Shown one piece after another: positions 16,693 through 35,298 of a DNA stretch of 64,000 bases. Positions within the stretch are counted from its first letter, which is position 1. Each line of letters opens with the position of its first letter. A model generated the notes under the pieces. The model was given only the letters and a program-made list of their open reading frames with translations. It was not told the origin of the DNA and ran no database searches. Source of the stretch: Planctomycetota bacterium (lineage in GTDB: Bacteria > Planctomycetota > Phycisphaerae > WQYP01); the NCBI GenBank assembly GCA_021805985.1, contig JAJZDN010000019.1, forward strand, positions 4,947-68,946, read 5' to 3'. A program made the position numbers and the translations under genes.

Positions 16693-16722
16693 ATACACAT
16701 TTAAAATAGGAGTAATAATTTA

Positions 16723-17223: not shown

Positions 17224-17640
17224 GCATGAGCACCGGATGATTAATCCGGTGGTTGATCCAATGCCACCGGGGCGGACGGGGTTACGGGTTACAGGGGACA
17301 GGGGACGCAATGAATGAGTAATGAGTAGAAGCTGGGGAACGATGGGGATATCACCGGAGCACCGGATGGTAATCCGGTGGTTGATCCAGTGCCGCCAACC
17401 ACCACCAAGTTATCAGAACGGCGCTCTATGACACGCTGCACCCTCCGTGAGCACCGGATGGTAATCCGGTGGTTGATCCAGTGCCGCCAACCCACCACCG
17501 GGTTATCACCACGGTGCTCGATGACACGCTGCGCCCTCCGTGAGCACCGGATGGTAATCCGGTGGTTGATCCAATGCCGCCAACCCACCACCGGGTTATC
17601 ACCACGGTGCTCCATGACACGCTGCGCCAGTCGCGACAGG
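17224..17640. repeat. MITE-like palindromic elements: one partial copy plus three tandem 93-bp units (gagcaccggatggtaatccggtgg...ccaccgggttatcaccacggtgctc)
   Basis: Each unit has ~24-bp terminal inverted repeats with an internal caccggat/atccggtg hairpin. The same ends recur at 28773, 31083 and 59325. Confidence 0.75.
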
Positions 17641-17818
17641 CGGACCCACAACTGTGTCATCACGCTATATTCCGCGATCAACCCAACGCTGCCGCGCTGG
17701 GCCAATGGACGGAAATTGGTAGATCGCTATTTCTGCAGCCACGTTGGCGCTCCCGGGAACGGTTAGCTGATATTTCACTCATTGCTGGGCACACAGACTT
17801 TAATAGAAAGATTTTTTC

Positions 17819-20469: not shown

Positions 20470-23298
20470 TTAGTTATTCAATGGCATTGCGCCTCGGCTG
20501 GTGGTTGGGCCGGTGCCCGGGTTGCCGCCCGGTGCTGGATGGGTGCTGGGCGGATTCAGGGTGCTGCCGGACGTCCCGCCCGTTGCAGAAATTGTGCTCT
20601 GGCCATGGGACTTGGCTTTGTTGCCCATCATGCCGCCTGGGGCGGAAGATTTGCCTTGGCCACTTCCGGCACTGGCGGCTGTATTGCCCACGTCGCCATT
20701 GCCACCTTGGCCGCTTGTGGAATTACCCGCTGTGCCGCCCGGGGGAGTTGCGCCTGGGCCATTTCCCGTATTACCCGCTGCGCCCGCAGTGCCGCCTGGT
20801 GTGGAAGCTGATCCTTGGCCAGCTGCGGAGTTGCCGGCGGCAGCGCCGTTTGTTCCGGCGGACGTGCCCTGGTTACTATCCGAATCCTCCCCCTTATTGC
20901 CATTGCTGGCCGTTCCCCTTTGGTCCTTATCAGAACCAGCAGCCGCACCACTTGGAGGGGTGGCACCCTGGCCATTTCCGGAATTGCCGGTTGAGCCAAC
21001 GGCTGCGCCCGGCGTGGAAGATGGGCCTTGAGCATTGGGGGAATCGCCCGTTGAATTGCGTTGTTGTGAATTTCCACTTTGGTCATTTTTAGAATTACCC
21101 TTCATGCCACCACTGCCTGACGTCCCGGTTTGATTGTTTCCGGAATTTGCTGCTGTGCTACCTTGTCCGGCAGTACCACTTTGGCTGCTTCCAGAATTAC
21201 CCGATGCGCCCGCTGTCCCCGAATTGCCGCTTTGAGCATTGCCCGAATCACCGCCAACTGCGGTCTGCTGGTCAACTGACATTAAAAGTGCCGATTGGCC
21301 GCCGGGAGTGCCAGCTCCGCCTTGAACGCTCGTGGAATTACGCATCATTCCGGCTGTGCCGGTAGATGGGCCGTGACCAGTCTTGGCATGGCCTGGCATG
21401 CCAGTTGTCCCGGAATTTCCATTTCTCCCCGATGCGTTGTTACCACCAGTGTTGGAACTTCCGCTTTGGCCGGCCGCGGAATTACCTGTGCCGGAATTTC
21501 CGCTTTGGCCCGCTGCAGAATTACCACCGGTGCCGGCGGCTCCGCCTTGACCGGCAGCGGAGTTACCAGCAGAACCGGAGTTCCCACTTTGGCTATTTTT
21601 AGAATTACTCTTCATGCCACCACTACCTGATTTGCCGTTTTGATTGTTTCCGGAATTCCCGGCTGTGCTGCCCTGTCCGGCAGTACCACTTTGGCCATTT
21701 TTAGAATTACCCTTCATGCCACCAGTACCTGAGGTCCCGTTTTGGTTGTTTCCAGAATTTCCGGCTGTGCTACCTTGTCCCCCAGTACCACTTTGGCTGG
21801 CTCCGGAATTTCCGGCCATGCCGCCCGCTCCACTTTGGCTGTTTCCAGAATTATTCGCTGCACCATTTGCCCCAGGAGTTGCACCTTGGGCAATTCCTGA
21901 ATTGCGCCCCGCACCGCCGGCAGTGGTTTGCTGGTCAACCGACATTAAAAGTACGCCTTGGCCACCTGCTGTTGAGCCGCCGCTTTGCCCGGCTGCAGAA
22001 AAATTACCTGTTGTGCCACCGGTGCCGGAAGTTCCGCTTTGACCCGCTGCAGAATTACCACCGGTGCCGGCGGCTCCGCCTTGACCGGCGGTGGAGTTAC
22101 CAGCAGAACCGGAATTTCCACTTTGGCCATTTTTAGAATTACCCTTCATGCCACCAGTACCTGAGGTCCCGTCTTGGTTGTTTCCAGAATTTCCGGCTGT
22201 GCTACCTTGTCCCGCAGTTCCGCTTTGGCTGCTTCCAGAATTACCCGATGCGCCCGCTGTCCCCGAATTGCCGCTTTGAGCATTGCCGGAGCCGCTGCCC
22301 GCACCGCCGGCTGCGGTCTGCTGGTCAACCGACATTAGAAGGATCGATTGGCCACCTGGTGTTGAGCCGCCGCTTTGCCCGGCTGTAGAAGAATTACCTG
22401 TCGTGCCACCGGTGCCAGCGGCTCCGCCTTGACCGGCGGCGGAGTTACCAGCAGAACCGGATGTTCCACTTCGGCTATTTTTAGAATTACCCTTCATGCC
22501 ACCACTACCTGATGTCCCGTTTTGGTTGGTTCCGGAATTCCCGGCTGTGCTACCCTGCCCGGCAGTTCCGCTTTGGCTGCTTCCAGAATTACCCGATGCA
22601 CCCGCTGTCCCTGAATTGCCGCTTTGAGCATTGCCGGAAGTGCCCCCGTTGCCACCAGCTGCGCTCTGCTGATCAATCGACATTAAAAGTGCAACGCGTC
22701 CACCTGGCGTCGAGTTTCCGTTTTGCCCCGCTGTGGAGCTACCTGTGCCTGAATTTCCGCTTTGGCCTCCTGCGGAATTACCACCGCTGCCGGAATTACC
22801 CGCTGTGCCAGATGATCCACCCGTGCCAGAAGATGATCCTTGGCCACTTCCCGAGTTACCTGCGGTACTGCCGGCCCCCGAAGTCCCGCTCTGACCCGCT
22901 CCAGAATTGCCCGCTGTGGTGCCTGTCCCCGAAGATGTCCCTTGACCGTTTCCGGATTTACCCATCATGCCACCTGTGCCGGCGGCTCCGCTTTGGCCTC
23001 CTGCGGAATTACCCATTGTGCCGCTTTGGCCATTGCCCATCGTGCCGCCTGTACCGGCAGCGGCCCCTTGACCGGTTGTGGAATTGGTCAAGTTTGGTGT
23101 TGTGTCCGCCGAACCTCTGTTCTGCACATCGCGCACAACCTTATTTTTATCCGAGCGTATTTTTGCTTGGTTCATACTCATCGTAAGATGGGAATTATTG
23201 TTGCCGCTGGCACCCGACACGCGAAACCATCCGCGATCGAACCCCACGACAACCAGAACAAGTACCAGTAAAACCAACAATGTAGATATGATTTTCAT
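20470..23298 (-). CDS. secreted/anchored low-complexity Gly/Ser/Thr/Asn/Gln-rich repeat protein (~940 aa)
   Basis: Start set at ATG 23298 (MKIISTLLVLLVLVLVVVGF signal/anchor) with RBS AAGAGGA. The body is almost entirely G/S/T/N/A/Q with at least four ~120-aa tandem repeats marked by LLMS[VI]DQQ[TS]AAGG. The DNA shows matching tandem repeats between 21270 and 22700. Confidence 0.6.
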   Translation of the reverse strand: MKIISTLLVLLVLVLVVVGFDRGWFRVSGASGNNNSHLTMSMNQAKIRSDKNKVVRDVQNRGSADTTPNLTNSTTGQGAAAGTGGTMGNGQSGTMGNSAGGQSGAAGTGGMMGKSGNGQGTSSGTGTTAGNSGAGQSGTSGAGSTAGNSGSGQGSSSGTGGSSGTAGNSGSGGNSAGGQSGNSGTGSSTAGQNGNSTPGGRVALLMSIDQQSAAGGNGGTSGNAQSGNSGTAGASGNSGSSQSGTAGQGSTAGNSGTNQNGTSGSGGMKGNSKNSRSGTSGSAGNSAAGQGGAAGTGGTTGNSSTAGQSGGSTPGGQSILLMSVDQQTAAGGAGSGSGNAQSGNSGTAGASGNSGSSQSGTAGQGSTAGNSGNNQDGTSGTGGMKGNSKNGQSGNSGSAGNSTAGQGGAAGTGGNSAAGQSGTSGTGGTTGNFSAAGQSGGSTAGGQGVLLMSVDQQTTAGGAGRNSGIAQGATPGANGAANNSGNSQSGAGGMAGNSGASQSGTGGQGSTAGNSGNNQNGTSGTGGMKGNSKNGQSGTAGQGSTAGNSGNNQNGKSGSGGMKSNSKNSQSGNSGSAGNSAAGQGGAAGTGGNSAAGQSGNSGTGNSAAGQSGSSNTGGNNASGRNGNSGTTGMPGHAKTGHGPSTGTAGMMRNSTSVQGGAGTPGGQSALLMSVDQQTAVGGDSGNAQSGNSGTAGASGNSGSSQSGTAGQGSTAANSGNNQTGTSGSGGMKGNSKNDQSGNSQQRNSTGDSPNAQGPSSTPGAAVGSTGNSGNGQGATPPSGAAAGSDKDQRGTASNGNKGEDSDSNQGTSAGTNGAAAGNSAAGQGSASTPGGTAGAAGNTGNGPGATPPGGTAGNSTSGQGGNGDVGNTAASAGSGQGKSSAPGGMMGNKAKSHGQSTISATGGTSGSTLNPPSTHPAPGGNPGTGPTTSRGAMPLNN

Positions 23299-23993
23299 AA
23301 TATTCCTCTTATGTTTCAGCCGCCAAAGGTGACACAAACAAACATCACCTAACTTTCTACCCTTGCAATTCCCATGCCCGGAGAATAATTTGGCCAACTT
23401 TCGTTCGCAGGGCACATGCTGGCACGGCGATCGCGCACTTATCCGCCAACCTGTCGGTGTCAGGGTGTCTGATTGGGCCTTAATGCCGCGACATACCACG
23501 TATTTCACATCTTCGGCACGACGAGACGCTTGGATTATTTCTTTCTGATCAACGGCCCCTTCTTTACGTGGGTCACTAAGACAATAATCCGCCAGGCGGC
23601 ATGATTCCTAAACGAAGGCGCTTGCACGCATCATCGTGTAATTGCATACGTTACAGATGATTTCGCATGTACGGCTTCCGCACAGCGCCCCGTGCGCGGG
23701 ACTGCAACTCATGCAAAGGCGGTAATGTAACTTCAATGCCGCATGGCCTGGGAAACCGTTACAGACACTACCTGTTATTAGCTCTGGTACGGCGTTTGCT
23801 AACTTTATTATGCGGTTAGTGAATGTCTGGAGTCATAGATTCGGAGAAAGAAGAATGACTTTAAGGATTCTATAAAACGAAGAAACCCTACCGGGAGGAA
23901 ATCTATTGTGCCTGACCTGCGTAAGGTGTTGCACAGCGAACTTGCCGGAGCAAAGTAGTAGGAAAAAACCATTAATTTTTAGGAGTACGTATT

Positions 23994-24206
23994 ATGAACA
24001 CGCAGCGCATTGTAGGAATTGTTCTTTTAATCATCGGCATTGCACTGTTATTTACAGGGCTGCATGCCTCGAATTCACTGGGTGATCAAGCGCACAATCT
24101 GGTCTTTGGGCGCTACACGGAAGCCACCGCCTTTTATATCTTCGGCGGCGGCGCGATTGCACTCATAGGGCTGCTCATGGCCGTAATTCCGGGACGCGTG
24201 CGTTAA
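23994..24206 (+). CDS. DUF3185 family small membrane protein
   Basis: 70 aa MNTQRIVGIVLLIIGIALLFTGLHASNSLGDQAHNLVFGRYTEATAFYIFGGGAIALIGLLMAVI, a two-TM pattern typical of DUF3185. RBS AGGAG. Confidence 0.6.
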   Translation: MNTQRIVGIVLLIIGIALLFTGLHASNSLGDQAHNLVFGRYTEATAFYIFGGGAIALIGLLMAVIPGRVR

Positions 24207-24257
24207 GCAAGCGTCTCCCTGGCGGGGGTCGCACGAAGCGCGACGCCCGAAACCCAG

Positions 24258-24309
24258 GAGCCTGTCCGCGTAATAGCCGTCGCAACCCGGCCATTACGCG
24301 GACAGGCTC
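24258..24309. other. 17-bp-stem perfect hairpin (gagcctgtccgcgtaat / attacgcggacaggctc)
   Basis: Read directly; 18-nt loop. Lies 50 bp after the DUF3185 stop and is followed by degenerate REP motifs at 24330-24525. Confidence 0.5.
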
Positions 24310-24797
24310 TTAGATCCCCCGGCGGACCGCATTCATCCTCGGCGCCTCCGCATCGAGCTACGTATTTGCCGTTAGCTGATGCGGAAGCGTCGCGGTAGGA
24401 TGCGGTTCGTTATACTGATTACCGATGCTGCATCGATCTGGATGGCCGCATCGGTCCCGACGCATGAGATCTCTGTATCATCAAACCATATTCCGCCTCT
24501 AACCCAACGCTGCCGCATTGGGCTGGGGGCGATCGTCAGGCTTGGGCATCGAATATAGCGGCGGAAAATAACTGGACCTTTCATCGTCACGCAGAATTGC
24601 AAAACACGAATACGTCTTTCTGGTATGCACTTGGCATGACCGCCCACTTGTTGTGCCCGCCTCATCGCCATGGTCCCCAACTTGAGTCATCAACTTAGCG
24701 CATCACCTTCCGGCATATCTTGGGGCTTACCTTGGGGCCTTGGCAAGGATGCCTTTGCGTGCGATAATCCTTTCTGAAAATTGAACCCGCACTGGAG

Positions 24798-25103
24798 TTG
24801 CATGTGATTATCGCAAAAATTGTCGGCACGGTTGTCGCAACCGTCAAAGATGCCGGTTTCGACGGCAAAAAACTGGTCTTAGCGCATGCTCATGTCCTCA
24901 AAGACGGACAACTTGTGCCGGGGCAGACGGTGCTGGTGGCCAATGATGATCTCGGTGCCGGAGAAGGGGAATTCGTGGTCCTTACGCAGGGCAGTTCCGC
25001 CCGTATGACCTCGAGTATGAAAAGCACCTCCACGGATGCTGTGGTCATCGCGTTAATAGATCGTATCGATGCCAACGGCCAACTGGTTTTTAAACGCAGC
25101 TGA
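24798..25103 (+). CDS. BMC vertex (pentamer) protein, EutN/CcmL/PduN family, paralog 1
   Basis: MHVIIAKIVGTVVATVKDAGFDGKKLVLAHAHVL...DDLGAGEGEFVVLTQGSSAR...DAVVIALIDRID aligns by eye with E. coli EutN (GAGTGEWVLLVSGSSARQA...VDLCVIGIVDEV). RBS GGAG 5 nt upstream. Confidence 0.8.
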   Translation: MHVIIAKIVGTVVATVKDAGFDGKKLVLAHAHVLKDGQLVPGQTVLVANDDLGAGEGEFVVLTQGSSARMTSSMKSTSTDAVVIALIDRIDANGQLVFKRS

Positions 25104-25143
25104 AATAATGTGTCCGCCTGGCGCGGTCCTCTTGAGGTTCTGT

Positions 25144-25422
25144 ATGTTTATTGCCATGGTTAAAGGCACGGTAACCGCCACCAAAAAGCACCCCTCCATG
25201 GCTGGTGCCCGGCTTTTAATTGTCCAGCCCATTGACGCGATGAGTGGTCAGCCCAACGGGTTTCCGCAAATTGCCGCTGATGTGCTGGGGGCGGCGAAAG
25301 GTATGCGGGTACTGGTGGTAAGTGATGGCCGGGGCGTGCAGGATATGCTCAAAACCGATCACCATTGCCCCCTGCGGCTAGGTATCATGGCCTTAATTGA
25401 TCCGCCCGCGGGCGGCAGGTAA
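25144..25422 (+). CDS. BMC vertex protein, EutN/CcmL family, paralog 2
   Basis: MFIAMVKGTVTATKKHPSMAGARLLIVQPID...ADVLGAAKGMRVLVVSDGRG...LGIMALIDP has the same fold signature. Start chosen at ATG 25144 after GAGG. Confidence 0.7.
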   Translation: MFIAMVKGTVTATKKHPSMAGARLLIVQPIDAMSGQPNGFPQIAADVLGAAKGMRVLVVSDGRGVQDMLKTDHHCPLRLGIMALIDPPAGGR

Positions 25423-25460
25423 CGCAGCAGCTGACGCCCGGCAGTATTTTGGAATAACGT

Positions 25461-25727
25461 ATGTATTTAGGTAAAGTCATTGGTCGAATTGAAGCTCGCA
25501 TTCGGCTTCCAGGCTTGGAAACCCAGCGCCTTGTATTGCTTGAGCCGTTAGATTTTAATCAACAACCCATTCGCTGGACTATCCTGGCGGTAGATGTCAC
25601 GGGTGCTTCGGAGGGGGCGCTGGTGGTATATGAAGAGGGGCGCGAGGCGGCCAATCCATTTGATCCACCGCTGGCAGTCGATGCCTGCATCGTGGCGATT
25701 GTCGATGATTATCAATACCAGGCTTGA
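25461..25727 (+). CDS. BMC vertex protein, EutN/CcmL family, paralog 3
   Basis: MYLGKVIGRIEARIRLPGLETQRLVLLEPLD...VDVTGASEGALVVYEEGREAA...DACIVAIVDD. Confidence 0.7.
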   Translation: MYLGKVIGRIEARIRLPGLETQRLVLLEPLDFNQQPIRWTILAVDVTGASEGALVVYEEGREAANPFDPPLAVDACIVAIVDDYQYQA

Positions 25728-25742
25728 GACATCGGAGTCGGC

Positions 25743-26717
25743 ATGGGGTCCATATTCGCTGTTTTTCAAATTATGCGCGTTGCTCTGGCGTTCACGGCGG
25801 TGGCGGACGTCTGGACGCTGATGCTTCTCAAAATTCCCGGACAAAAACCCATCAACGACCCAATCGCTGAATTTGCCCTGGCGGCCTTGGCGTCGTTTTT
25901 CCTTTACACCTTCGGCATGGCTCTTAATGATCTGCTGGACTCGCGCCGCGATCGTCTTTTTGCCCCCTGGCGGCCCATTCCCAGCGGACGGCTTAGTGTG
26001 CCGGCGGTCATTGTACTAAGTTTGGTGCTGATGCTCTTAGGTTTATTTTCCGCAACGTTGTTATCCTGGTTTGAACCCCTGCACTTTCCCGTCGCTTTGA
26101 TGCTGGCTATGACCGTCAGCCTGATGATTGTTTTTTATAACGCCACGGGGAAATATCTCGGATACATCGGCTTTATTGCTCTAGGCCTGATTCGCGGCGT
26201 GAACTGCCTGATTGGTCGGCCCAATGCGGGATTTTTAATTTTATCGTTGTTTCTCTTTACCCACATCGCCGTGGGTACCGCTATATCCTACCGTCTGGAA
26301 TCCAAACGTCCGCGGCTGCGAATTGCCGGCATCTGGAAACTCTTAGGCTCGGTTGCCTTGATCGATGCCGTCGCAATTTTAATCATGCTGCTGCGCGGCA
26401 GTATCACACGCAGCGTGCTTATGGACGCCTTGGGGCCGGCCGTGGTGGCTGTGATTTACTTCAGTTGGGTCGGGCGACAAATATTTAATCATCATGAAGC
26501 ACCGAGAAAACGCGGTGAGCGCATCATGCTGGTGGGGTTATTTACCCTCTTCGCCTATGACGCTTCTCTGTTGGCCGCTAACGGGGCGTTTCATGGAATG
26601 GCAATAATATTGGCGCTGGCGGTTGTATCCTGCATCGCGTTCTGGGTCATGCGACTGGCCGGAAAAGGTCTCACGGTTGGCCGCCCACGCTACCGTATTC
26701 GCGCCGGGCGCTCATGA
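25743..26717 (+). CDS. UbiA-family membrane prenyltransferase
   Basis: 324 aa with ~8 TM helices and the NDLLDSRRD motif (NDxxDxxxD, the Asp-rich prenyl-diphosphate site of UbiA enzymes). It starts 16 nt after paralog 3. RBS GGAGT. Confidence 0.6.
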   Translation: MGSIFAVFQIMRVALAFTAVADVWTLMLLKIPGQKPINDPIAEFALAALASFFLYTFGMALNDLLDSRRDRLFAPWRPIPSGRLSVPAVIVLSLVLMLLGLFSATLLSWFEPLHFPVALMLAMTVSLMIVFYNATGKYLGYIGFIALGLIRGVNCLIGRPNAGFLILSLFLFTHIAVGTAISYRLESKRPRLRIAGIWKLLGSVALIDAVAILIMLLRGSITRSVLMDALGPAVVAVIYFSWVGRQIFNHHEAPRKRGERIMLVGLFTLFAYDASLLAANGAFHGMAIILALAVVSCIAFWVMRLAGKGLTVGRPRYRIRAGRS

Positions 26718-26790
26718 ATTTCACTCACTATGTCCGTTGAAAGTTAGCCACTATGCGCCACAGCCTGCGCGATTGGCTGCCCGCCCTTTA

Positions 26791-28635
26791 TCAGTGCAGC
26801 AATCCATAGCAGTTCAACGCTTGGGTAGTGCTTACATAAACTCGACCATCGGCCACGGTGGGTGTAGAATTCATATCAATTTCGCGGCCCACAATCTTAT
26901 TGGACAGACCGTGGCGCCCTGTGCCGTTACTGCTGTCAAAAAGCTCAAAGCGAAGATTATTGGCACGATACGCCACAAGCCGATTGTTATTTCGGTTCAG
27001 CAACCAGACAATACCGTGGCGTTTTCCATTGGCAGATATCTCGGCGGTGGAACCGGGATAGGGGAATCTATCGCGTGATTCGGTAACGGGTTGAGGCGTG
27101 ATGTGCGCATGAGCGATAAGAAATGCTTTGGCGAAATCGGCGACTTCCGCGTAATAAATCCAGCCGCTGTGGCGATGCGGTCCTGCGAAAAAAGCCCCGG
27201 TGCTAAAGCCACTGCCCGTTGCGAGGGGTAATTCCTGAACCACCGCATTATAACCGGAGTGTCCGTTCCCTTTTTTGCCGCCGTGATATCCGCCCATATC
27301 ATTGCGATCCAGTAAATAAATCGTCCCCGGCTTATCGTTAATGACCAGCAGATGGCGATGACGCTTATCCCCCACCGATGCCGGCAGCAGCACCGGACTG
27401 GAAGATCCCAGATCAAGATCGCTGCGCAGGAGGTGATTTTCATCCTTTGGCACAAAATAATCCGCCACATGCAACCCAAAACCATTGGGGTTATCACGAT
27501 GTTGCCGCGTATCCGAATCTGGAACCAGCTTCAGGGCCGCATCGCCAAAGTCGCCCAACGCGGGTATCTGCAGATGCGACGAATCAACTTTAAGCCGATG
27601 GCGATAGGGTGCGGGGATAAGATGCGTTTCAAACGTACCGTTGCCGGTTTCAACAAACAGATTGCCTGCATGATCAACAGCAATGGGGCCTCCCCATATT
27701 CCTGCGGCCCAGCCACTGGGCGTCGCGCTCCAGACCGCTTTAACCGGTAAATTACCGTCCTGGTTTTTTACCGTTCCATACCCGAGGATCCATCCGTTAT
27801 AGGGTCCAATATCGCCCGGATCAGCACAGGCCATGTATAAAACATGATTAACCGGATCAATGGTGAGATAGCGGAATGTGATCTCAAAACCATAAAAATG
27901 ATCCAACTTACCATTGGCCTTGCGGACCGTTGGACCGGTGATGTATTGGCCGCGCGGCCCGCTTTCTGAAATTTTTATCTGGTGGGCATAAAATTTCCCG
28001 TTGCCAAGCCGCAGCGCAGACAGAACGTGAATCCAATGCAGTTGCCCATGGGTTCCCGGACCTTTCTCCGTTTCCTCACATTCCACATAAATGACACCGG
28101 TCGCCAGATCAATGGCCGGCGTGTCTTCCAAAGGTTCATTTTTTGCGGCCCAGTTGGGGTTTTCCTCCTGCGCTTTGACGGTATCCGAAGCGTTGTCAAA
28201 ATGTTTAAGCAGATTGCGTTTCCATAGCACTTGTCCGTTGTTGGCATTAATGGCATAAACGGCATCCCGGGAAGTAGTGGCAATGATGATGTTCTGCATG
28301 CCCGGATGTGGACCTGTCGTGATATTTACATGCGATACAAACAGCGGTTGGCCATAATCCACCCCGTTAAGCCGCGTGACAAACAGCTTTCCGAAAAGAC
28401 CCACGCGAACGTTGTGCGGGGTCAACACATGCTCCTGCAGGTTTTCGCCAGTGTTGGCCAGATCATTGTGATTAATGAGGATATTGACCGCCGCTTGCGC
28501 GCGCGGGGCGCCCAAAAGCATAAGCCCCAGGGAAACTCCGGTCAGGATAATATTAAATAAAGTTCTCCCGCGCTGCTGAACTCCCCGGATAAATGCCACC
28601 AGCAACTCGCGCGGACTGAAAAAATTACCACTCAT
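26791..28635 (-). CDS. secreted PQQ-like / beta-propeller repeat protein
   Basis: 614 aa with an N-terminal signal anchor and repeated motifs (AVYAINANNGQVLWKRNL, VYVECEETEKG.., LYMACADPG...) typical of PQQ-type beta-propeller blades. RBS AGGTGG. Confidence 0.5.
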   Translation of the reverse strand: MSGNFFSPRELLVAFIRGVQQRGRTLFNIILTGVSLGLMLLGAPRAQAAVNILINHNDLANTGENLQEHVLTPHNVRVGLFGKLFVTRLNGVDYGQPLFVSHVNITTGPHPGMQNIIIATTSRDAVYAINANNGQVLWKRNLLKHFDNASDTVKAQEENPNWAAKNEPLEDTPAIDLATGVIYVECEETEKGPGTHGQLHWIHVLSALRLGNGKFYAHQIKISESGPRGQYITGPTVRKANGKLDHFYGFEITFRYLTIDPVNHVLYMACADPGDIGPYNGWILGYGTVKNQDGNLPVKAVWSATPSGWAAGIWGGPIAVDHAGNLFVETGNGTFETHLIPAPYRHRLKVDSSHLQIPALGDFGDAALKLVPDSDTRQHRDNPNGFGLHVADYFVPKDENHLLRSDLDLGSSSPVLLPASVGDKRHRHLLVINDKPGTIYLLDRNDMGGYHGGKKGNGHSGYNAVVQELPLATGSGFSTGAFFAGPHRHSGWIYYAEVADFAKAFLIAHAHITPQPVTESRDRFPYPGSTAEISANGKRHGIVWLLNRNNNRLVAYRANNLRFELFDSSNGTGRHGLSNKIVGREIDMNSTPTVADGRVYVSTTQALNCYGLLH

Positions 28636-28772
28636 AGATCAGGACCACCTTTCAAAGGAAACTATAGCGATTCCGGGGGCACACGCAAGGCTGGCCCGGA
28701 GTAAAACTGGCTCCGCATCTTACCGCTATATACGATCATCGCCTGGAAAAGTTGGGCCTGTTGGGGGAGCAT

Positions 28773-29061
28773 CCCGCCATAGAGCACCGTGGTGATAACC
28801 CGATGGTTGGCCTGGGGACCAGGTTACGGGTTACGGGGGACAGTTACAGGGAGGGGGGTGTCAGTAATTGCAGTAATTGCAGTATTATCAGTACATTCAG
28901 AGTTTGGAACCTAGAACCTGGAATCTGGAATGTCGAACGTACTGCCAATACTGATAATACTGAATGTACCGCCAATACTGTCCCCTGTAACCCCGTCCGC
29001 CCCGTCCGCCCCGGCGGCACTGGATCAACCACCGGATTATCATCCGGTGCTCTACAAGATT
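28773..29061. mobile_element. MITE-like element (~290 bp) with terminal inverted repeats and internal microsatellites
   Basis: Left end gagcaccgtggtgataacccg...gggttacgggttacgggggacag; right end ctgtcccctgtaacccc...cggattatcatccggtgctc is its reverse complement. The interior has cagtaattgcagtaattgcag and ggaacctagaacctggaatctgg repeats. A reverse-oriented REP motif follows at 29075-29103. Confidence 0.6.
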
Positions 29062-29188
29062 AACACAGATTTTCGTCCGTAGCTCAATGCGGCAGCGTTG
29101 AGTTCGCGGCGGAATGCAATGCGATGACACGCCGTATTCCGCCCGTCGCAAACCGCTCCTCCTCAGATAATCTCTCCCGCGCGGGCGA

Positions 29189-29587
29189 TCAGTTAAATAG
29201 CCCGCGGTGTTTATAAATTTTGGAGCATGTCAGGCTGTAATGCTCCACCACGCCATGGCGATTAAATAAAATCACCAGCGATTTTCTGGTGCCGCGGGCG
29301 TTGGTTTCCACCGCGTTGATAAACGGGAGAAAATCGGTGGTTGTCAAATGTAGCCTGGTATAGTCATATTCCCATTGCTGACAGCCGTTGCTGTTATATG
29401 AAACCTTCAACGGATCACCAAGATCATCCTTTACCTGGCAGCTGGTGGTTTTTCCGCGAATAATTTTCCGCGAAACCTGTGATGCGGTGAGGTGGTCAAT
29501 CTGCTGATTGCCCTGACTCGAGCAACCAACCAGACCCGCGGATAACAGCGCCGCTATGGCAAGGATGGTAAAACGCACAGCTTTCAT
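29189..29587 (-). CDS. lipoprotein of unknown function
   Basis: MKAVRFTILAIAALLSAGLVGCSS lipobox, 132 aa. RBS AGGAG. Confidence 0.5.
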   Translation of the reverse strand: MKAVRFTILAIAALLSAGLVGCSSQGNQQIDHLTASQVSRKIIRGKTTSCQVKDDLGDPLKVSYNSNGCQQWEYDYTRLHLTTTDFLPFINAVETNARGTRKSLVILFNRHGVVEHYSLTCSKIYKHRGLFN

Positions 29588-29838
29588 AGCATGGACTCCT
29601 GTTGATTGATTGCACCTTTCTTAGTCCGTTCCGGCCGAACGGGACTGGAATCCAGTATATTGTCGGAGTTCACATCCAAAAGTCAATTAAAAAAACCGGA
29701 ATCCACGTTTGTTGTAAACTTCCGGAGCCGGTCTAAGTAATCGCAATCCTGGCCATGACTCGTAGAGGCTCCCGTATCGGATAACATATCGGATAACTGG
29801 TCTTGACTGGCAATCAGTATTAGTATATTATTAAACCA

Positions 29839-30327
29839 ATGAGCAGCGCATCCAATAGCTCCGGGGTGTCACAGAAACTAAACGTGCTGGTGCCTGACGC
29901 GCAGTTGCCGCGGGAAAATTGGCTGGCCATTGCCCGGGTCGATTCTCTGATGACCAAGCAGTTGGACCGCAGCTTGCGCGACATTGAGCTGACCATTTCT
30001 CAGTTTGAAGTGCTGATGATTTTAAACAGCAAAGCGGGTTTATCGCAGCAGGATTTGGCACAATGTCTGCTGGTTACCAAAGGAAATGTCTGCACGGTGC
30101 TGGGGCGGATGGAAAAAAACCAATGGATTGTCCGGCAGCAGGATCCGCATGATGGCCGCGCGCATTGTCTGCATCTGACGGAAAAGGGCCGGGAAATGGT
30201 TAAAAAAGCTGCCCCCTTGGCCGCCAAACAGGTGCGTCTGATGATGGACAGCTTATCGCTGGTACAACAAAGGGCGCTGCATGATTTGTTGGATCGCCTG
30301 GAGGGCTCCTTAGGCCATTGGGTGTGA
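29839..30327 (+). CDS. MarR-family transcriptional regulator
   Basis: LTISQFEVLMILNSKAGLSQQDLAQCLLVTKGNVCTVLGRMEKNQWIVRQQDPHDGRAHCLHLTEKG is a winged-HTH MarR pattern. The exact start is uncertain. Confidence 0.7.
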   Translation: MSSASNSSGVSQKLNVLVPDAQLPRENWLAIARVDSLMTKQLDRSLRDIELTISQFEVLMILNSKAGLSQQDLAQCLLVTKGNVCTVLGRMEKNQWIVRQQDPHDGRAHCLHLTEKGREMVKKAAPLAAKQVRLMMDSLSLVQQRALHDLLDRLEGSLGHWV

Positions 30328-30405
30328 CCCTTGGATTTGACTCTCTTCGGTGTAAAGTATAGTATTAAACCAGTTGGTGGTGATGTCTTTTTTCAGGAGC
30401 TTGTT

Positions 30406-31026
30406 ATGTCGGTTAAAGTTCACGTCGTATTTTACAGCATGTATGGCCACATCTGGCATATGGCCGAAGCTATTGCCGCCGGAGCGCGGGAAGTCAGCGG
30501 CGCGGAAGTAAAGATTTTCCGTGTGCCCGAAACCATCCCCGCGGATGTTCTTGAAAAGCACGGCGCCGCCGGAGCGCAAAAGGCCTTTGCCCATATTCCC
30601 GTTATCGCGCCGGCGGAGCTTACCCAAGCCGATGCCATCATTTTTGGTACCCCGACACGCTTCGGAAACATGGCCGCACAAATGCGGAATTTTCTGGATC
30701 AGACCGGCCAAATTTGGGCTACCGGTGGTCTGATTGGTAAAGTCGGCAGTGTTTTCGCCAGCTCCGCCTCACAGCACGGCGGCCAGGAAACCACCATTAC
30801 CAGTTTTCACTCCACCTTGCTGCATCATGGAATGGTCATTGTCGGCGTACCTTATTCTGAACAACGGCTCGTTGCCATGGATCAAATCACCGGCGGAACA
30901 CCGTACGGAGCCACCACCTTGGCCGGCCCAAAGGGTGAGCGCACCCCCAGTGAAAATGAACTGGCCATCGCCCGATTTCAAGGGAAACATGTTGCCCAGA
31001 TCGCCGCCAAGCTAGCGCGTAAGTAA
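30406..31026 (+). CDS. wrbA: NAD(P)H:quinone oxidoreductase WrbA (flavodoxin-like)
   Basis: [42 protein letters not shown]...[24 protein letters not shown] matches WrbA. RBS AGGAG. Terminator-like hairpin plus T-run at 31040-31066. Confidence 0.8.
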
Positions 31027-31082
31027 ACCGTGTGAAAAAAAGGTGTCAGGTACCTTTTTTCTTTAACGCGGTGCGCCCGCCG

Positions 31083-31331
31083 AGCACCGGATGATTAATC
31101 CGGTGGTTGATCCAGTGCCGCCGGGGCGGGCGGGGTTACAGGTTACGGGTTACAGGTTACAAGGGGACAAGTATTGGCGGTACATTCAGTATTATCAGTA
31201 TTGGCAGTACGTTCGACATTCCAGGTTCCAGGTTCCAGGTTCCAGGTTCTAGGTTCTAGGTTCTAGGTTCTAGGTTCCAATCCCTGAATGTACTGATAAT
31301 ACTGCAATTACTGGTTTATCACTGCGGTGCT
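31083..31331. mobile_element. MITE-like element of the same family as 28773-29061
   Basis: Left end gagcaccggatgattaatccggtggttgatccagtgccgcc...gggttacaggttacgggttacagg; interior ggttccagg/ggttctagg microsatellite; right end ...cactgcggtgctc. Confidence 0.6.
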
Positions 31332-31349
31332 CTATGACCCGATTGAAAA

Positions 31350-32501
31350 TCACGGCTTTGCCCGTACAGCCGATTTACCGGCTTTAATAAATGCGTCCAC
31401 CTGTTGTCCAACATACAGTGGAAACGGTGCCGAACCCATGCGGTAAACCACTTGCAGCACGCGGGTTTCAACTTGCTCGGTCGGAGCGCCGGTAAGATTC
31501 TGCTTGGGCACGACAAAAGGCTCAATACGTAAAAACGTCAATGGAATTTGCTGGCGTGTCATGCCGCGCACAAAGCACATGGCAGCTTCCGCAGGATTAA
31601 ATCTAGACGCATCTTCCTGATCTATTTGCAGCCGCACGTTTAAATGCCGAATATCTCCCAGAATGAGCGCCGCCAGCTGGGGATTGTCGGTGATGTTCTC
31701 TATCGCGGCGGTATCCGCAAATTGCCCGGGACGGATGTTAATGCGCAGAACTGTGCCATTAATGGGCGCACGGACTGTCAGTAAATCGAGACTGACCATC
31801 GCCTGTTCCAACTGCGCGTCATTGCCTGCAATCGTGGCGCGGGCAGCCAGCACCTGGGTTTTGGCGATGGTAATATCCCGGCTCCATGTGCCGGCATTAA
31901 ACTGTGCCAAATCGGCTTTCGCCTTTGCCAACTGCGCTTGGGCTGTCAGCCAGGCAAAGCGTCGATCCGCGACGTCATCAACGGATAGGGCATCCGTGCC
32001 GATCAACGGCTTGATGCGTTGCCAGCGCTGTTGGTCATTGCTATACGTGGCCTGGGCCGCCTGCACCGCCGCCAGATAGGTCAGGCGATCCACCGCGCGC
32101 GGCGGTGATTGCAGCTTTGCTAAATTGGCCTTGGCCTCCGCCAGTTGTGCCTGGGCTGTCAGTACCCCGGCTCGGGCCAACGCCACTTGCGCCTTGGCCT
32201 GCCGGGTATCCAGTTGAAAGAGTTTCTGCCCCTTAACCACCCGCTGATTCCATACGACAAATACATGCGTCACCACGCCGCTGATGAATGGCGAAACCGC
32301 GATGGTGCGGCTTTCAGGCTCAATAATGCCGGACGCGGCAATCGCGTTGGTATACGGATTCCCCGCTGGATGCACCGCCGGCGGAACTGACCGGTAATGA
32401 TGGGTACTGCGTTTTACCGCAATAACGCCAATAGCAGCGCCGGCGATGGCCAGAATAGGAACCAAATATTTCCGAATCATATATTTCCTCAAACAACTCA
32501 A
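31350..32501 (-). CDS. HlyD-family membrane fusion (periplasmic adaptor) protein, DevB/MacA-like
   Basis: N-terminal TM, long coiled coil (AKAQVALARAGVLTAQAQLAEAKANLAKL...) and a beta-barrel C-terminus. The ATG overlaps the ATPase stop (ATGA); an alternative ATG at 32480 has a good RBS. Confidence 0.8.
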   Translation of the reverse strand: MSCLRKYMIRKYLVPILAIAGAAIGVIAVKRSTHHYRSVPPAVHPAGNPYTNAIAASGIIEPESRTIAVSPFISGVVTHVFVVWNQRVVKGQKLFQLDTRQAKAQVALARAGVLTAQAQLAEAKANLAKLQSPPRAVDRLTYLAAVQAAQATYSNDQQRWQRIKPLIGTDALSVDDVADRRFAWLTAQAQLAKAKADLAQFNAGTWSRDITIAKTQVLAARATIAGNDAQLEQAMVSLDLLTVRAPINGTVLRINIRPGQFADTAAIENITDNPQLAALILGDIRHLNVRLQIDQEDASRFNPAEAAMCFVRGMTRQQIPLTFLRIEPFVVPKQNLTGAPTEQVETRVLQVVYRMGSAPFPLYVGQQVDAFIKAGKSAVRAKP

Positions 32502-33214
32502 GCTGCGCCGGTTACGACCGTATCAATAATTTTGCCATCTTCCATGTGGGCGATTCGATCGGAAAAGTGGAAAATGCGACTATCATGCGTCACCACAATC
32601 ACCGCCCGATCAGGCCGCACCGCGATGGTTTTAAGTAAACTGATGACCTGTTCGCCGGTCTTTCCGTCCAGAGCGCTGGTGGGTTCATCACATACCACCA
32701 GCTTAGGTTCGTGCACCAGCGCCCGAGCAAATGCGATACGTTGCTGCTGTCCGCCGGAAAGTTCACGGGGGTAGCTTGTCAGCCGCGTACCCAGTCCCAT
32801 TTTATCAAGGAAATCCCCCGCCCGATCCAATGCCCTCCGCCGCGGCCAGCCCAGTACCAACAGCGGTATGGCGGCATTTTCGACAGCCGTGAGTTGCGGC
32901 AAAAGATTAAACTGTTGAAATGCAAAGCCGACATTTCTTCCACGAAATCGGGCCTTAGCGTTGTTGCCCAAGGCCAGAAGATCCTGCCCAAATAGATGAA
33001 TCTCGCCGTCATCGTGATTCAAAATGCCGGCAATTACCGAAAGTAATGTGGTTTTACCACAGCCGGATGGCCCAACCAGCATCAGCAGTTCACCAGTGAA
33101 AACATCCAGTGTTACACCGGCCAACGCGTAATTAACCGCATTCCCCTGGCCGAAGGATTTTTTAACTCCGCGGCACTGCACCGCAACATTTCCCTGCTGC
33201 AAACTCATTGGCAC
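32498..33214 (-). CDS. ABC transporter ATP-binding protein (MacB/LolD/DevA-like)
   Basis: Walker A GPSGCGKTT, signature LSGGQQQR, Walker B LVVCDEPTSALD, H-loop VTHD. Confidence 0.85.
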   Translation of the reverse strand: MPMSLQQGNVAVQCRGVKKSFGQGNAVNYALAGVTLDVFTGELLMLVGPSGCGKTTLLSVIAGILNHDDGEIHLFGQDLLALGNNAKARFRGRNVGFAFQQFNLLPQLTAVENAAIPLLVLGWPRRRALDRAGDFLDKMGLGTRLTSYPRELSGGQQQRIAFARALVHEPKLVVCDEPTSALDGKTGEQVISLLKTIAVRPDRAVIVVTHDSRIFHFSDRIAHMEDGKIIDTVVTGAA

Positions 33215-33251
33215 CCCATGCGCTGTGGTAACTGCTGGTGGGTTTCACAAC

Positions 33252-34391
33252 TCATTTGAACACCACTGCCGGCTCAAGTTTCACAACCGATACCAACGAG
33301 AACAGACTGGCGAAAATAACAATGAAAATCATTCCAATTCCGGTTACGGCCATAATTTGCCATAGAAAAACCGCCAGCCGTTCGCTGGGCGGGGTAAAAT
33401 GCAAAATCAGCATGTTCGCCGCGCCGCTTATGCCAATTCCGATACCAAAGCCCAGTACCCCGGTAACAATCGCCTGCAGCAATACCATGCGGACAAGTGT
33501 GAAATCGGTTGCTCCCATGGCCTTTAGTGCGCCCAGGTACCGCAGATTATCATGCGTGAATTGATACAGCGTCTGGCCGGCAATGGCGATTCCAACCAAT
33601 GCGCCCAGGCTGATGGTAATGCAGAAATTGATCGGAATACCCGTTGATTTCATGTAATACCAGAATGTTTTACTGGCGATGCCAGCCTTGGTGTACGCCT
33701 CCAGCCCGGTGCGGTGCTCAATGCGCTGGCACAGAGCTGTGAAATTCTGCTTTGGCCGCGCCTTAACCAGTATTACCGCGAGCTGATGGCGCTGCGCGGG
33801 TGCCCAATTGGCGGCGCGACTATACGTGGTATAAATAATGGGTAGCCCCTGGAAACTTAAAGCGGTTCGGCACAACCCCGTTACTAATGCACGGTTGCCA
33901 TTAATCTGTATGGTTTGACCGGGCTTGATGTTGCCAAGTTTGTCCTGTGCATAGGCCGCATCTACCAGCACGCCATGCGATATTCTCAGCGCGTTAATGG
34001 TTATGCCGCCCAGCAATTTTGGCGGTCCGCCCGCCAGAGCCTGATCGCCCAGACCAAGTAGAAGACAGGTTTGAAATTTGCCATCCGAAAGCCGCACTTG
34101 AACATCCTGCCGGAATAGCCGCGTGGCCCATAAAACACCGGGTATCGCTTTAACCCGATATAGGTCATCCTCGCTCATGGGTCGCAGATCATCGACATCT
34201 TCCATGGGACGATTTGTCACCCAGATATCGGGCGTGCTGATGTTGGTCACAATGCCATAAGTGCTGCGCATCAGGCCGACGAAAATATTTAACTGCTGCG
34301 AAATAAGAAATGTCGCCAGCGCAATGCCGATAATAATACCAATATATTTAACGCGATCACCAACCAACATCCTCAGGGCGATAAAATTCAT
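33252..34391 (-). CDS. ABC transporter permease, FtsX/MacB-type (DevC-like)
   Basis: ~380 aa with an N-terminal TM, a large periplasmic domain and three C-terminal TM helices. Start at ATG 34391 after GGGAGA. Confidence 0.75.
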   Translation of the reverse strand: MNFIALRMLVGDRVKYIGIIIGIALATFLISQQLNIFVGLMRSTYGIVTNISTPDIWVTNRPMEDVDDLRPMSEDDLYRVKAIPGVLWATRLFRQDVQVRLSDGKFQTCLLLGLGDQALAGGPPKLLGGITINALRISHGVLVDAAYAQDKLGNIKPGQTIQINGNRALVTGLCRTALSFQGLPIIYTTYSRAANWAPAQRHQLAVILVKARPKQNFTALCQRIEHRTGLEAYTKAGIASKTFWYYMKSTGIPINFCITISLGALVGIAIAGQTLYQFTHDNLRYLGALKAMGATDFTLVRMVLLQAIVTGVLGFGIGIGISGAANMLILHFTPPSERLAVFLWQIMAVTGIGMIFIVIFASLFSLVSVVKLEPAVVFK

Positions 34392-34498
34392 GATTCGTTT
34401 CTCCCTAGGTTGGCCGCAAGACTTCCACAGTACCATTTGGGCGTAAAATCAGCCGCAGCATTTTAGGCGTGCCAGCGTGGCCGGGCTACTTCACGCTC

Positions 34499-34861
34499 TC
34501 ATGCTTTCATGCCAATCATGACCACACCAATTAAAATGAAAAGAATGCCCAGCCAGCGTTGCCGGGTCATGTGCTCTTTGAGGAAATATGCCGAACAGAA
34601 CGCGACTGTGGCAAAACAGATAGCACCCATCGGAAAGGCGATAATCAGCGGCATAAAATGTAACGTCCAGGTCCAGAAAATTGACTCGGCAATAAAGGAT
34701 ACAATCGCCGCCTGAGTCCAGTGGTTGGTGAGAATTTGCCGCAGTATGCCACCGGCTCCCGGCGGCATTCCGCGGGTGCCGACTTTCATGGTCACCTGTC
34801 CCACTGTTTCCAAAACCACCGCGCCGGAAAAACTCAGCAGCCCCGTCCAATACACGTTCAT
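34499..34861 (-). CDS. small EamA/DMT-superfamily 4-TM transporter (ArnE/ArnF-like)
   Basis: 120 aa, four TM helices. ATGA overlap with the upstream paralog. Confidence 0.5.
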   Translation of the reverse strand: MNVYWTGLLSFSGAVVLETVGQVTMKVGTRGMPPGAGGILRQILTNHWTQAAIVSFIAESIFWTWTLHFMPLIIAFPMGAICFATVAFCSAYFLKEHMTRQRWLGILFILIGVVMIGMKA

Positions 34862-35298
34862 CCAGTCGCCTCCGAAGTACCCGGCGGCTGCTGCGCGGCC
34901 ATGACCCGCCGGGGCGACTCGGACGGCGTGCGACTAACCAGAACCACTCCAACCAACACCAGGGCGATACCGCAAAATTGAAGCGGATCCAGATTTTCTG
35001 AAAAAAGCCAATGGGAACTTATCGCCACGACAATATAGCTTAAGGCTGTGATTGGCTGGACAAAGCTTAAATCCGCCAAAGCCAGAACCATCATCCAGTT
35101 AAACAACTGCCAGACGTGTAATAGCAGGCTCAGCAGAAATAGAGGTTTAATCAGCGTAGCCCCCAGAGCATGCGCCATTCCGCCGTGCTGGGGAACTGAG
35201 GCACGCCAGCACAGTTGCACGCTGGTGTCCAGAGAAATCGCCAGAAAAAGCCCGATCCACAGCAGTAGCCGGGGACGCTTTGGAGCAGGAATGCTCAC
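34858..35298 (-). CDS. small EamA/DMT-superfamily transporter, paralog (ArnE/ArnF-like)
   Basis: 146 aa, four TM helices. GTG start overlapping the SGNH gene stop. Confidence 0.45.
   Translation of the reverse strand: MSIPAPKRPRLLLWIGLFLAISLDTSVQLCWRASVPQHGGMAHALGATLIKPLFLLSLLLHVWQLFNWMMVLALADLSFVQPITALSYIVVAISSHWLFSENLDPLQFCGIALVLVGVVLVSRTPSESPRRVMAAQQPPGTSEATG

Follow-up and report, generated by a model that had tools for sequence, protein, structure and literature searches.

A REPIN/BIME-like family of palindromic intergenic repeats in uncultured Phycisphaerales

Introduction

In a 64-kb stretch of DNA from a Planctomycetota bacterium (hereafter the window), an earlier note had described MITE-like elements with long terminal inverted repeats (TIRs) and built-in microsatellites, two complete copies of which were placed near positions 29 and 31 kb. 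The locus raises the question whether this DNA belongs to a discrete repeat family and, if so, what its basic unit is and by which route the unit could have spread. To our knowledge, nearly all work on REP/REPIN systems concerns Proteobacteria. A clearly bounded family in uncultured Phycisphaerae would offer a comparative case for the persistence of intragenomic sequence populations, and its comparative value would lie in conservation across species, in its arrays and in a rare extended palindromic form with heptamer microsatellites.

Results

Copies in the window and distribution of the family

The flagged DNA is a real, discrete and dispersed family of intergenic palindromic repeats, present far above chance. 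The 28-nt core CACCGGATG(N1-2)TAATCCGGTGGTTGATCC occurred seven times in the 64-kb window (17231+, 17360+, 17452+, 17545+, 29022-, 31085+, and 59335+) and never in 100 dinucleotide-preserving shuffles. The perfect hairpin reported near the ends, CACCGGAT-nnnn-ATCCGGTG (caccggat-nnnn-atccggtg), was found in every window copy. The copies occupy four sites, A to D, and all four were intergenic, as claimed before, by gene calls on public contigs of the window's species; the flanking gene pairs are ferritin-like/CLC channel, PQQ-repeat protein/132-aa protein, FMN reductase/HlyD-like protein, and 300-aa protein/cyclophilin. The copies and the repeats next to them are as follows.

17228-17356, plus strand: mosaic copy with left arm (REP-L) at 17228-17268, GGTTACG/GGGGACA heptamers, a GTAATGA block and the module CTGGGGAACGATGGGGATATCACCG
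17357-17633, plus strand: three-unit array with hairpins at 17357-17426 (right arm degenerate), 17449-17519 and 17542-17612
28782-29052, minus strand: extended form B, left arm 29052-29013, right arm 28812-28782, tail ~28763-28781
29077-29130, plus strand: GTAG-tagged REP CCGTAGCTCAATGCGGCAGCGTTGAGTTC... from a second family, abutting copy B (D9, D10, I2-I21)
31034-31062, plus strand: T-REP AAAAAAAGGTGTCAGGTACCTTTTTT, a separate repeat 20 nt upstream of copy C
31082-31343, plus strand: extended form C, left arm 31082-31122, degenerate right arm to 31332, tail TATGACCCGAT at 31333-31343
59097-59331, plus strand: mosaic upstream of copy D with (GTAATGA)5, (AGGTTCC)3, GGATCCACCGATTTCACCGATTACACAGATTT, (GGTTACG)3GGGGACA and CTGGGGAACGATGAGGATATCACC (D7, D14, I22)
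59332-59439, plus strand: copy D, left arm and variant spacer GCGAGCCAACCGCGGGCTGGATGAG leading into an (AGATTCC)n array

The copy at 17228-17356 has no right arm, and the same composite recurs at 59288-59376 with 90% identity (family D7). Copy D is likewise without a canonical right arm, and its type of junction was also found at locus L022 of a related species. In the three-unit array, each hairpin is followed by a tail of ~21-22 nt, TATGACACGCTGCgCCCTCCGT. The three tandem 93-bp copies described earlier were recovered by TRF as an array at 17357-17628 (period 93, 2.9 copies, 94% matches), and nhmmer gave E = 2e-24, 6e-24, and 3e-18.

Further copies of the GTAG-tagged REP lie at 6682, 6896, 7621, 7825, 13285-13740, 17652, and 24473. 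In the genome ZJ5.bin40, about one quarter of the units are centred in a ~230-nt composite bounded by GGAGCCTGTCCGAG...CTCGGACAGGCTCC; the window holds this composite without the central unit at 58360-58645 and in a minimal hairpin version at 24256-24312, which is missing from the lineage of contig L075. Units are joined in varying order with T-REP, GTAG-REP, a GGAGCC...GGCTCC composite, heptamer blocks, and the module CTGGGGAACGATGGGGATATCACC. Modules common to other repeats had been pointed out before, and GGATCCACCGATTTCACCGATTACACAGATTT indeed also occurs in the array at 13277-13693 (pair I22). Taken together, the composite, the GTAG-REP family, T-REP, and the heptamer blocks make up a BIME-like mosaic. 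A composite transposon formed by the inverted copies B and C around 2 kb of DNA was also considered and rejected: the genes between them encode a hypothetical protein, a MarR regulator, and an FMN reductase, and no transposase.

When one genome per prokaryotic species was scanned, the core was found in 58 stretches, all of them from Planctomycetota/Phycisphaerales MAGs. The number of exact cores reached 52 in ZJ5.bin40, with fewer in clean1592, clean5707, and DBS1-1.bin91, and a metagenome scan added eight loci, none of them with a transposase. The plasmid and phage collections contained no match to the repeat. The family is restricted to one clade of Phycisphaerales (Planctomycetota), all of them uncultured. 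Public sequences of the window's species comprise GCA_027428555.1, whose contig DAICIG010000028.1 contains the same region, and several ENA assemblies; ZJ5.bin40 (JAKBCC01) is a different species with coding DNA 77-82% identical to the window. A profile model, which had been proposed as a check, was run with nhmmer on the window and the genomic loci and returned 103 non-redundant matches, 67 of them full length; full doublets numbered 67 against two singlets. The copies have a fixed length and a sharp 5' boundary. In several short-read MAGs the repeats lie at or near contig ends, and spurious ORFs can read through them.

Anatomy of the basic unit

The basic unit was defined from every exact core in the window and the related genomes. 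It is an imperfect palindrome of 71-72 nt, GAGCACCGGATGATAATCCGGTGGTTGATCCAGTGCCGCCAACCAACCACCGGGTTATCACCACGGTGCTC, followed by a 3' tail of ~20 nt, which gives 91-93 nt in total. The 71-bp minimal palindromic unit named in the earlier note was thereby upheld: a strict pattern retrieved 49 short copies, of which 39 measure 71 nt and eight 72 nt, and a length of 71 nt was also found in 47 of 65 nhmmer matches. The unit is predicted to fold as one hairpin of ~26 bp with a 16-nt loop, at -43.2 kcal/mol as RNA (z = -8.0) and -24.5 kcal/mol as DNA (z = -7.4); folds of similar stability are predicted for the opposite strand.

The left arm holds a perfect local stem-loop, CACCGGAT-GATA-ATCCGGTG, and the stem of the left REP, GAGCACCGGAT-GATA-ATCCGGTG(CTC), spans 8-11 bp. 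The right arm, CACCGGGTTATCACCACGGTG, is an inverted and degenerate copy of the left arm with the loop TTATCA versus TGATAA, and its REP-like stem-loop is degenerate (CACCGGGTTATCACCACGGTGCTC). The unit thus consists of two inverted REP-like palindromes with a 24-nt spacer, and it is this arrangement that lets the whole fold as a ~26-bp hairpin. A distant lineage from the metagenomes has a right arm that is a perfect hairpin by itself, CACCGCAT-TATC-ATGCGGTG. Terminal inverted repeats around a core, as assumed before, do not describe this structure, as the unit is a single hairpin built from two inverted REP-like stem-loops. Inverted repeats of 60-70 bp apply to extended copy B, whose interior is palindromic, but not to the basic unit, in which arm-to-arm pairing spans ~26 bp.

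When copies B and C are aligned, similarity starts at G1 of GAGCACC, ends ~12 nt beyond GGTGCTC (TATGRCnnGAT), and is absent outside these limits. Both copies earlier placed at 28773-29061 and 31083-31331 are real, but the first runs exactly from 28782 to 29052 (minus strand) and the second from 31082 to 31332 (plus strand), and a 3' tail of ~12-20 nt (TATGRCnnGAT...) is also part of the unit. The 3' flank TATGACGCGA is conserved over 63 copies, while the 5' flanks fall into unrelated classes. Of 21 tandem pairs, 15 have a spacing of 91-93 nt; as this spacing equals the length of hairpin plus tail, the arrays are head-to-tail concatenations of whole units. GTA precedes G1, which gives a GTAG abutting the stem, in 16 of 64 left arms, and TAT follows C71 (ATAG on the opposite strand) in 26 of 64.

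Extended forms and microsatellites

Copies B and C are one variant of the unit, with ~180-230 nt added in the apical loop after GTGCCGCC. Heptamer and 9-mer microsatellites fill the ~200-nt interior of copy B in mirror image, so that each arm has GGTTACR/GGGGACA and CAGTAnnnn blocks, and the 277 nt of this copy are predicted to fold into one hairpin (DNA -66.2 kcal/mol, z = -7.8). The interior of copy C consists of (GGTTACR)n, CAGTAnnnn 9-mers, and (AGGTTCC)4(AGGTTCT)4. The two copies differ in the copy number of GGTTACN; copy C has five extra AGGTTCC/AGGTTCT, and relative to B it shows a 70-nt deletion in the right-hand interior. With its interior truncated, copy C folds weakly (z = -2.1). 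Extended copies accounted for seven of the 69 exact-core copies from the window and the genome loci, and four of the seven lie in the window. The idea that the 250-290-bp form is the complete element was therefore dropped, and the long forms are seen as minority derivatives of the 71-72-nt unit.

The microsatellites found by TRF comprise GGTTACG/GGTTACA/ACAGGGG, GTAATGA, AGATTCC, and 9-mers such as CAGTAATTG, as well as TTCCAGG repeated 8.7 times at 31219-31279. Those of period 7 and period 9 are confined to the intergenic repeat clusters of the window. Heptamers vary between extended copies, for example AGGAGTT/AGAAGTT in L022 and L056, and the same heptamer blocks occur outside units, in one case beside the gene for a transposase in a related genome. 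With few copies extended, with differing heptamers and with blocks outside the units, the microsatellites are a trait of the intergenic clusters of this lineage. They sometimes lodge in the loop and are not intrinsic to the family, so that the built-in microsatellites of the earlier note are present in the extended window copies but do not characterize the family as a whole. Heptamer arrays specific to the family were rejected: 19 of 46 arrays occurred within 300 nt of a unit, in loci that had been selected as unit-bearing, but arrays also flank a Y1 transposase and other repeats. Hypervariability of the microsatellites was rejected as well, since sites C and D do not differ in length between any of the species' public contigs.

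Conservation and variation between genomes

The copies in ZJ5.bin40 form a cloud around one master. Five of them are identical to it outside the search core, the modal distance is one difference, and divergence from the master amounts to 12% in the loop and 4.5% in the right arm. Outside the search pattern, the right arm has a 27-nt stem (CAACCACCGGGTTATCACCACGGTGCTC minus its first base) that is identical between the window units and the ZJ5.bin40 master, whereas the genes of the two differ by ~20%. The core of the left arm was set by the search pattern, and its apparent perfect conservation is therefore partly ascertainment. Copies at orthologous sites were found in genomes ~85% identical in DNA (L008/L030, L001/L015, L029/L048, and L009/L031/L062). 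The element is clearly more conserved than its flanks in L001/L015, and right-arm drift is about equal to flank drift in L008/L030.

At site A, one contig of the same species carries two units instead of three in otherwise identical sequence, which could be an assembly collapse. At site B, a related lineage has a REP singlet with a long stem, cataGAGCACCGGATTATCATCCGGTGCTtTAcaag, instead of the 271-nt form. REPIN singlets have been explained by deletion between the two REPs, which leaves a long palindrome with one REP (PMC3116915), and the singlet at site B corresponds to this deletion product. The repeats coincide with an abrupt change of strain identity on one public contig, L075, where identity to the window is 76-90% on the left of site B and 100% on the right. 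The switch reflects either recombination at the repeat cluster or a chimera made in assembly. No clean pair of a filled and an empty site was found for the 71-nt unit. One syntenic comparison with a related species concerned the region upstream of mnmE, where ZJ5.bin40 has the element and the window has none, but upstream synteny is broken at mnmE and the comparison is thus not decisive. The polymorphisms seen may be deletions, assembly collapse, or a chimeric contig.

Target sites and transposases

A classical MITE would be a deletion derivative of a DDE-type IS that is mobilised via its TIRs and makes target-site duplications. The small unit with inverted-repeat ends, its dispersed, intergenic, and AT-poor character, the existence of 250-290-bp extended forms, and a TA to the left of 19 and to the right of 31 of 64 copies are all consistent with such an origin. 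However, TA stands on both sides in 10 of the 64 only, despite arms that are >95% conserved. Target-site duplications, for which the earlier note had suggested a search, were not found for k of at least 3 at any offset; no direct repeat of 3-8 nt appeared at any offset pair, and 2-nt matches were barely above permuted controls. An IS or transposase with matching ends (GAGCACCGGATG...) was likewise not found in the window or the 66 related loci, and no multi-copy or transposase-like ORF adjoins the copies. The unit is moreover asymmetric, having a conserved 3' tail with no 5' counterpart, and its arms are themselves stem-loops. As duplications and a recurring ORF or transposase are absent, double TA is rare and the unit is asymmetric, a DDE-type MITE does not fit, and we consider this origin very improbable.

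All six-frame ORFs of the window and the 66 loci were queried with RayT of E. coli, the protein from L030, and a profile built on 122 sequences. The sole Y1 ORF in the repeat-bearing loci was L030:757-1446 (PF01797, E = 5e-12), and the window has none. Six copies of a different repeat, AAAGGTGTCAGGTACCTTT, lie within 1.4 kb of this gene. Its homologues P0001, P0002, and P0003 (at 97, 65, and 66% identity) have inverted T-REP copies on their flanks. All four inspected Y1 genes of the lineage are thus flanked by AAAAAGG(T/G)GTCAGGTACCTTTT (T-REP) and not by the 71-nt unit, and P0092, a homologue from unrelated assemblies, showed only a GGTGTCAGG-like motif. The 71-nt unit was absent near the four homologues that were looked up (P0001, P0002, P0003, and P0092). 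The GGGGWSAS motif of TIRYT genes is matched in full by the P0003 version of the repeat, GGGGTCAG, and at seven of eight positions by GGTGTCAG of the other copies. A solo T-REP lies beside three 71-nt units, namely copy C (20 nt upstream) and units in L026 and L042.

Since these Y1 transposases come with a flanking repeat of their own, HUH-transposase/repeat biology of the REPtron/TIRtron kind operates in the lineage. A Y1 transposase flanked by the 71-nt repeat (inverted GAGCACCGGATGnTAATCCGGTG) was found neither in the window nor in the 66 loci, which stem from fragmentary MAGs. P0001 occurs mostly on contigs of 1-2 kb; with fragmentary MAGs and repeat-flanked genes on tiny contigs, the missing cognate Y1 gene is a weak negative.

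RNA and host functions

The strong predicted fold (z about -8) and the tolerance of G-U pairs on the plus strand would suit small structured RNA genes, or a cis-regulatory RNA, repeated through the genome. None of the covariance models of Rfam 15 matched at gathering score, so that a known structured RNA family is not indicated, and permissive thresholds gave chance-level miRNA-like matches (E~0.01). Both strands fold equally well, neither covariation nor an orientation bias was seen, and no promoter-like site is consistently placed. In an alignment of 68 sequences, compensatory change in the long hairpin was no higher than in shuffled controls; the local arm hairpins showed few compensatory cells, mainly from the distant lineage with the right arm CACCGCAT-TATC-ATGCGGTG. 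Termination, a role raised in the earlier note, found no backing in a terminator scan, which gave no site at any unit: TATGACGCG follows the units with no T-run, so the hairpin-plus-T-run signature is lacking, and there is a mild excess of gene 3' ends (75 vs 52). These null results from Rfam, covariation, orientation, and T-runs make a strand-specific RNA function unlikely, and an RNA gene or cis-regulatory RNA seems highly improbable. The units may have a symmetric structural or mRNA-stabilising role. Riboswitches were rejected for want of an Rfam match and of covariation, attC sites because the unit has no RYYYAAC/GTTRRRY boxes, and a CRISPR because the 'spacers' of the array are conserved.

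The units could alternatively be structural elements selected by the host and not mobile, serving as mRNA stabilisers or terminators at 3' ends or as binding sites for proteins on DNA, which would have spread mainly by recombination or duplication and been kept by purifying selection. An analogy is given by BIMEs, which are bound by IHF and gyrase. Copies kept at orthologous sites across species, arms conserved beyond nearby coding DNA, and a very stable predicted hairpin agree with this explanation. Each of the four window sites follows a gene 3' end, and across loci the element sides face gene 3' ends in 75 and 5' ends in 52 cases by crude ORF calls. The orientation to the upstream gene is nevertheless near random (39 co-oriented, 36 mirror), the stem is not followed by a T-run, and compensatory changes are absent, with 95.6% of cells paired as in shuffles. 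The dozens of near-identical copies share a sharp 5' boundary and radiate star-like from one master, which points to copying and not to independent origin, and a regulatory reason for tandem arrays of whole units is not obvious. A primarily host-selected element is thus rather unlikely.

Discussion

A REPIN-like family in a familiar class

The family looks like REPIN/BIME-type non-autonomous palindromic repeats, closer to the REP/REPIN class than to a classical miniature transposon. It is a short imperfect palindrome with many extragenic copies (seven cores in 64 kb of the window, 52 in ZJ5.bin40), in which inverted REPs stand at a fixed distance (47 of 49 short copies at 71-72 nt) and in which an excess of direct repeats is absent for k of at least 3 at any offset. 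As in BIMEs, REPs are mixed with other conserved motifs in variable mosaic arrays. A cognate RAYT flanked by the same REPs was not found in the window and the 66 loci. REPINs have been described as hairpin-forming doublets of inverted REPs with fixed spacing; singlets are far rarer than doublets, and some REPINs occur in tandem clusters together with their flanks (PMC3116915). Action of a RAYT-type transposase in trans has been proposed for them. Given the resemblance to REP/REPIN repeats of other bacteria, the repeats form a new family within a familiar class and are ordinary in kind.

On balance, a REPIN-type mechanism, with mobilisation in trans by an HUH Y1 transposase via a hairpin intermediate, is slightly favoured, where we infer the link to the enzyme. 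Counting against it are the failure to find a Y1 gene flanked by this repeat in the window and the 66 loci, a GTAG tag on no more than 16 of 64 left arms, and the lack of a clean pair of filled and empty sites. The mover is probably an HUH tyrosine transposase. A single-stranded hairpin intermediate would be copied by a RAYT-like Y1 transposase acting in trans, and insertion beside an existing unit would give the head-to-tail arrays. Other modular repeats and heptamer microsatellites may then accumulate in the apical loop and so produce the extended forms. Any use by the host, such as protection of mRNA 3' ends or protein binding, would be secondary.

It is also conceivable, but quite improbable, that the unit is a self-sustaining hairpin replicator that has no dedicated flanking RAYT and is moved in trans, for example by the TIRYT-type Y1 transposase, whose own T-REP lies next to several units, or by an undescribed mechanism, with the apical loop as a preferred landing and expansion site for heptamers. 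If this were true, the planctomycete repeats would be linked mechanistically to the STRR heptamers of cyanobacteria.

Comparison with known systems

The REPIN-type reading can be set against several known repeat systems. Among classical bacterial MITEs, the Correia elements of Neisseria have a TA target duplication and IS-like TIRs. Like the family, they measure 70-300 bp, end in inverted repeats, lie between genes, and may affect transcripts, while the TA target duplication and the IS-like TIRs were not found for the 71-nt family. In cyanobacterial STRR, small dispersed repeats are nested in heptamer repeats. Similarly, the intergenic heptamers of this lineage (GGTTACR, GGGGACA, AGGTTCY, AGGAGTT, and GTAATGA) are interleaved with small palindromes, but phylum and sequences differ, and the heptamers lie in the loops or flanks of several repeat families and not of one. 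An excess of heptamers in bacteria has been reported (PMC4692102).

TIRtrons, with tyrosine transposases of the TIRYT type, have inverted repeats of the GGGGWSAS kind (PMC3733652). The same genomes that carry the 71-nt unit contain comparable ~230-aa PF01797 proteins with inverted AAAAAGG(T/G)GTCAGGTACCTTTT; this repeat is unlike the 71-nt unit in sequence, and there is no sign that the TIRYT enzyme recognises the unit. GTAG-tagged REPs and head-to-head dimers are also on record for the PVC superphylum, with Rhodopirellula baltica and Opitutus terrae as examples (Di Nocera et al. 2013, PMC3733652). Stems of 8-11 bp, loops of 4-5 nt, head-to-head dimers with outside tags, several families per genome, and mosaics are common to both systems, as is a GTAG abutting the stem, which is found here in a subset. 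The tag is present in ~25% of left arms here, compared with >90% in most of the families described there; the right arm has ATAG, and the sequence is unrelated to the consensus families listed there, as far as could be judged.

The closest comparison is with the GI-GIII REPINs of Pseudomonas fluorescens SBW25 (PMC3116915). The family differs from these in that no RAYT flanked by the repeat was found in the window and the 66 loci, in that its arms are unequal (one perfect, one degenerate), in its conserved 3' tail, and in a minority of copies with a microsatellite-rich loop of 180-230 nt, which is palindromic in copy B. Both are extragenic inverted doublets that form one hairpin and make no target duplication, and both occur in dozens to hundreds of copies, with tandem clusters that include the flanks and with conserved REP arms.

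Repeat families

Further repeats accompany the 71-nt REPIN-like unit. The T-REP, AAAAAGG(T/G)GTCAGGTACCTTTT, has the appearance of a bidirectional terminator. In all inspected clade members of this lineage, inverted T-REP copies lie on both sides of the ~230-aa PF01797 (Y1/TIRYT-like) transposase genes. Solo T-REPs adjoin three of the 71-nt units. The repeats CCGTAGCTCAATGCGGCAGCGTTGAG, with a stem of 8 bp and the loop GGCA, are a classical GTAG-tagged REP family; its copies frequently carry the extension ACGTAAATCTGTGTTAATCGGTGAAATCTGTGGATCC, and the family forms a tandem array (152-nt x3) at 13277-13693.

31034-31062: T-REP in the window
L030:276-1700 and L082, L086, L087: T-REP in related public loci
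6682-6715, 6896-6946, 7621-7671, 7825-7875, 13285-13740, 17652-17702, 24473-24523, 29077-29130: GTAG-tagged REP copies
24256-24312, 58360-58645: third palindromic family, ends GGAGCCTGTCCGAG...CTCGGACAGGCTCC

The third family has its minimal form in a 58-nt hairpin at 24259; the related lineage represented by the public contig L075 (ERZ27237206:k141_486802) lacks exactly this hairpin. A ~230-nt version in ZJ5.bin40, a metagenome-assembled genome of a different, related species, carries the 71-nt unit at its centre, while the window copy at 58360-58645 is without it.

Junctions and possible rearrangements between related contigs

DAICIG010000028.1 (NCBI) and one ENA contig come from the window's own species and match it at 99.98% identity as far as 58506. 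Past ~58506 they encode a phage-type integrase of 474 aa together with a D12 DNA methyltransferase, where the window continues into the cyclophilin side. This difference is an island presence/absence polymorphism, and its junction falls inside a repeat cluster.

~58506 in the window; L088:4902-6903 and L089 in public contigs: island junction

Compared with window positions 23839-36300, L075 is 76-90% identical to the left of copy B, an extended form of the 71-nt unit (28782-29052, minus strand), and 100% identical to the right of it. Either the lineages have recombined, with the REP cluster as the breakpoint, or the metagenome assembly is chimeric at the repeat. One short public contig, L073 (Logan SRR13201269), places the DUF892 gene directly upstream of the ferritin-like gene when compared with window positions ~12660-16720; in the window and the other contigs the two are ~3.5 kb apart, and the genes in between include those for an ice-binding-like protein and a GGDEF protein. 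The gene order of L073 suggests a deletion or rearrangement variant.

Other repeats and period-7 microsatellites

3190-3566: tandem repeat, 132-nt x2.8 (95% matches), directly against a tRNA gene (3562-3635, minus strand)
41046-41113, 50591-50658, 53978-54045: 68-nt sequence GCCGATGCTGCATCTTAGCCGATCCAAATTTAAGACAGTCTTACAATAACCGAAGGGGCTATGCC
20470-23508, minus strand: 1012-aa ORF with dozens of degenerate 42-51-nt (14-17-aa) repeats
3104-3141, 17291-17327, 28822-28930, 31134-31279, 58729-58802, 59038-59439: period-7 arrays

Two GCCGATGCTGCATCTTAGCCGATCCAAATTTAAGACAGTCTTACAATAACCGAAGGGGCTATGCC copies, 9.5 kb apart, share 99% identity and the third 65%; the sequence possibly serves as a common promoter or leader. 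Higher-order periods of 102 and 348 nt run through the 1012-aa repeat ORF.

Period-7 microsatellites are in strong excess: they make up 16 of the window's 56 TRF rows, and the related loci hold 50 such arrays in 552 kb. The arrays are located inside or beside intergenic repeat clusters. Their mutually related heptamer units (AGGTTCY, GGTTACR, AGGAGTT, AGAAGTT and GTAATGA) are reminiscent of the cyanobacterial STRR heptamers.
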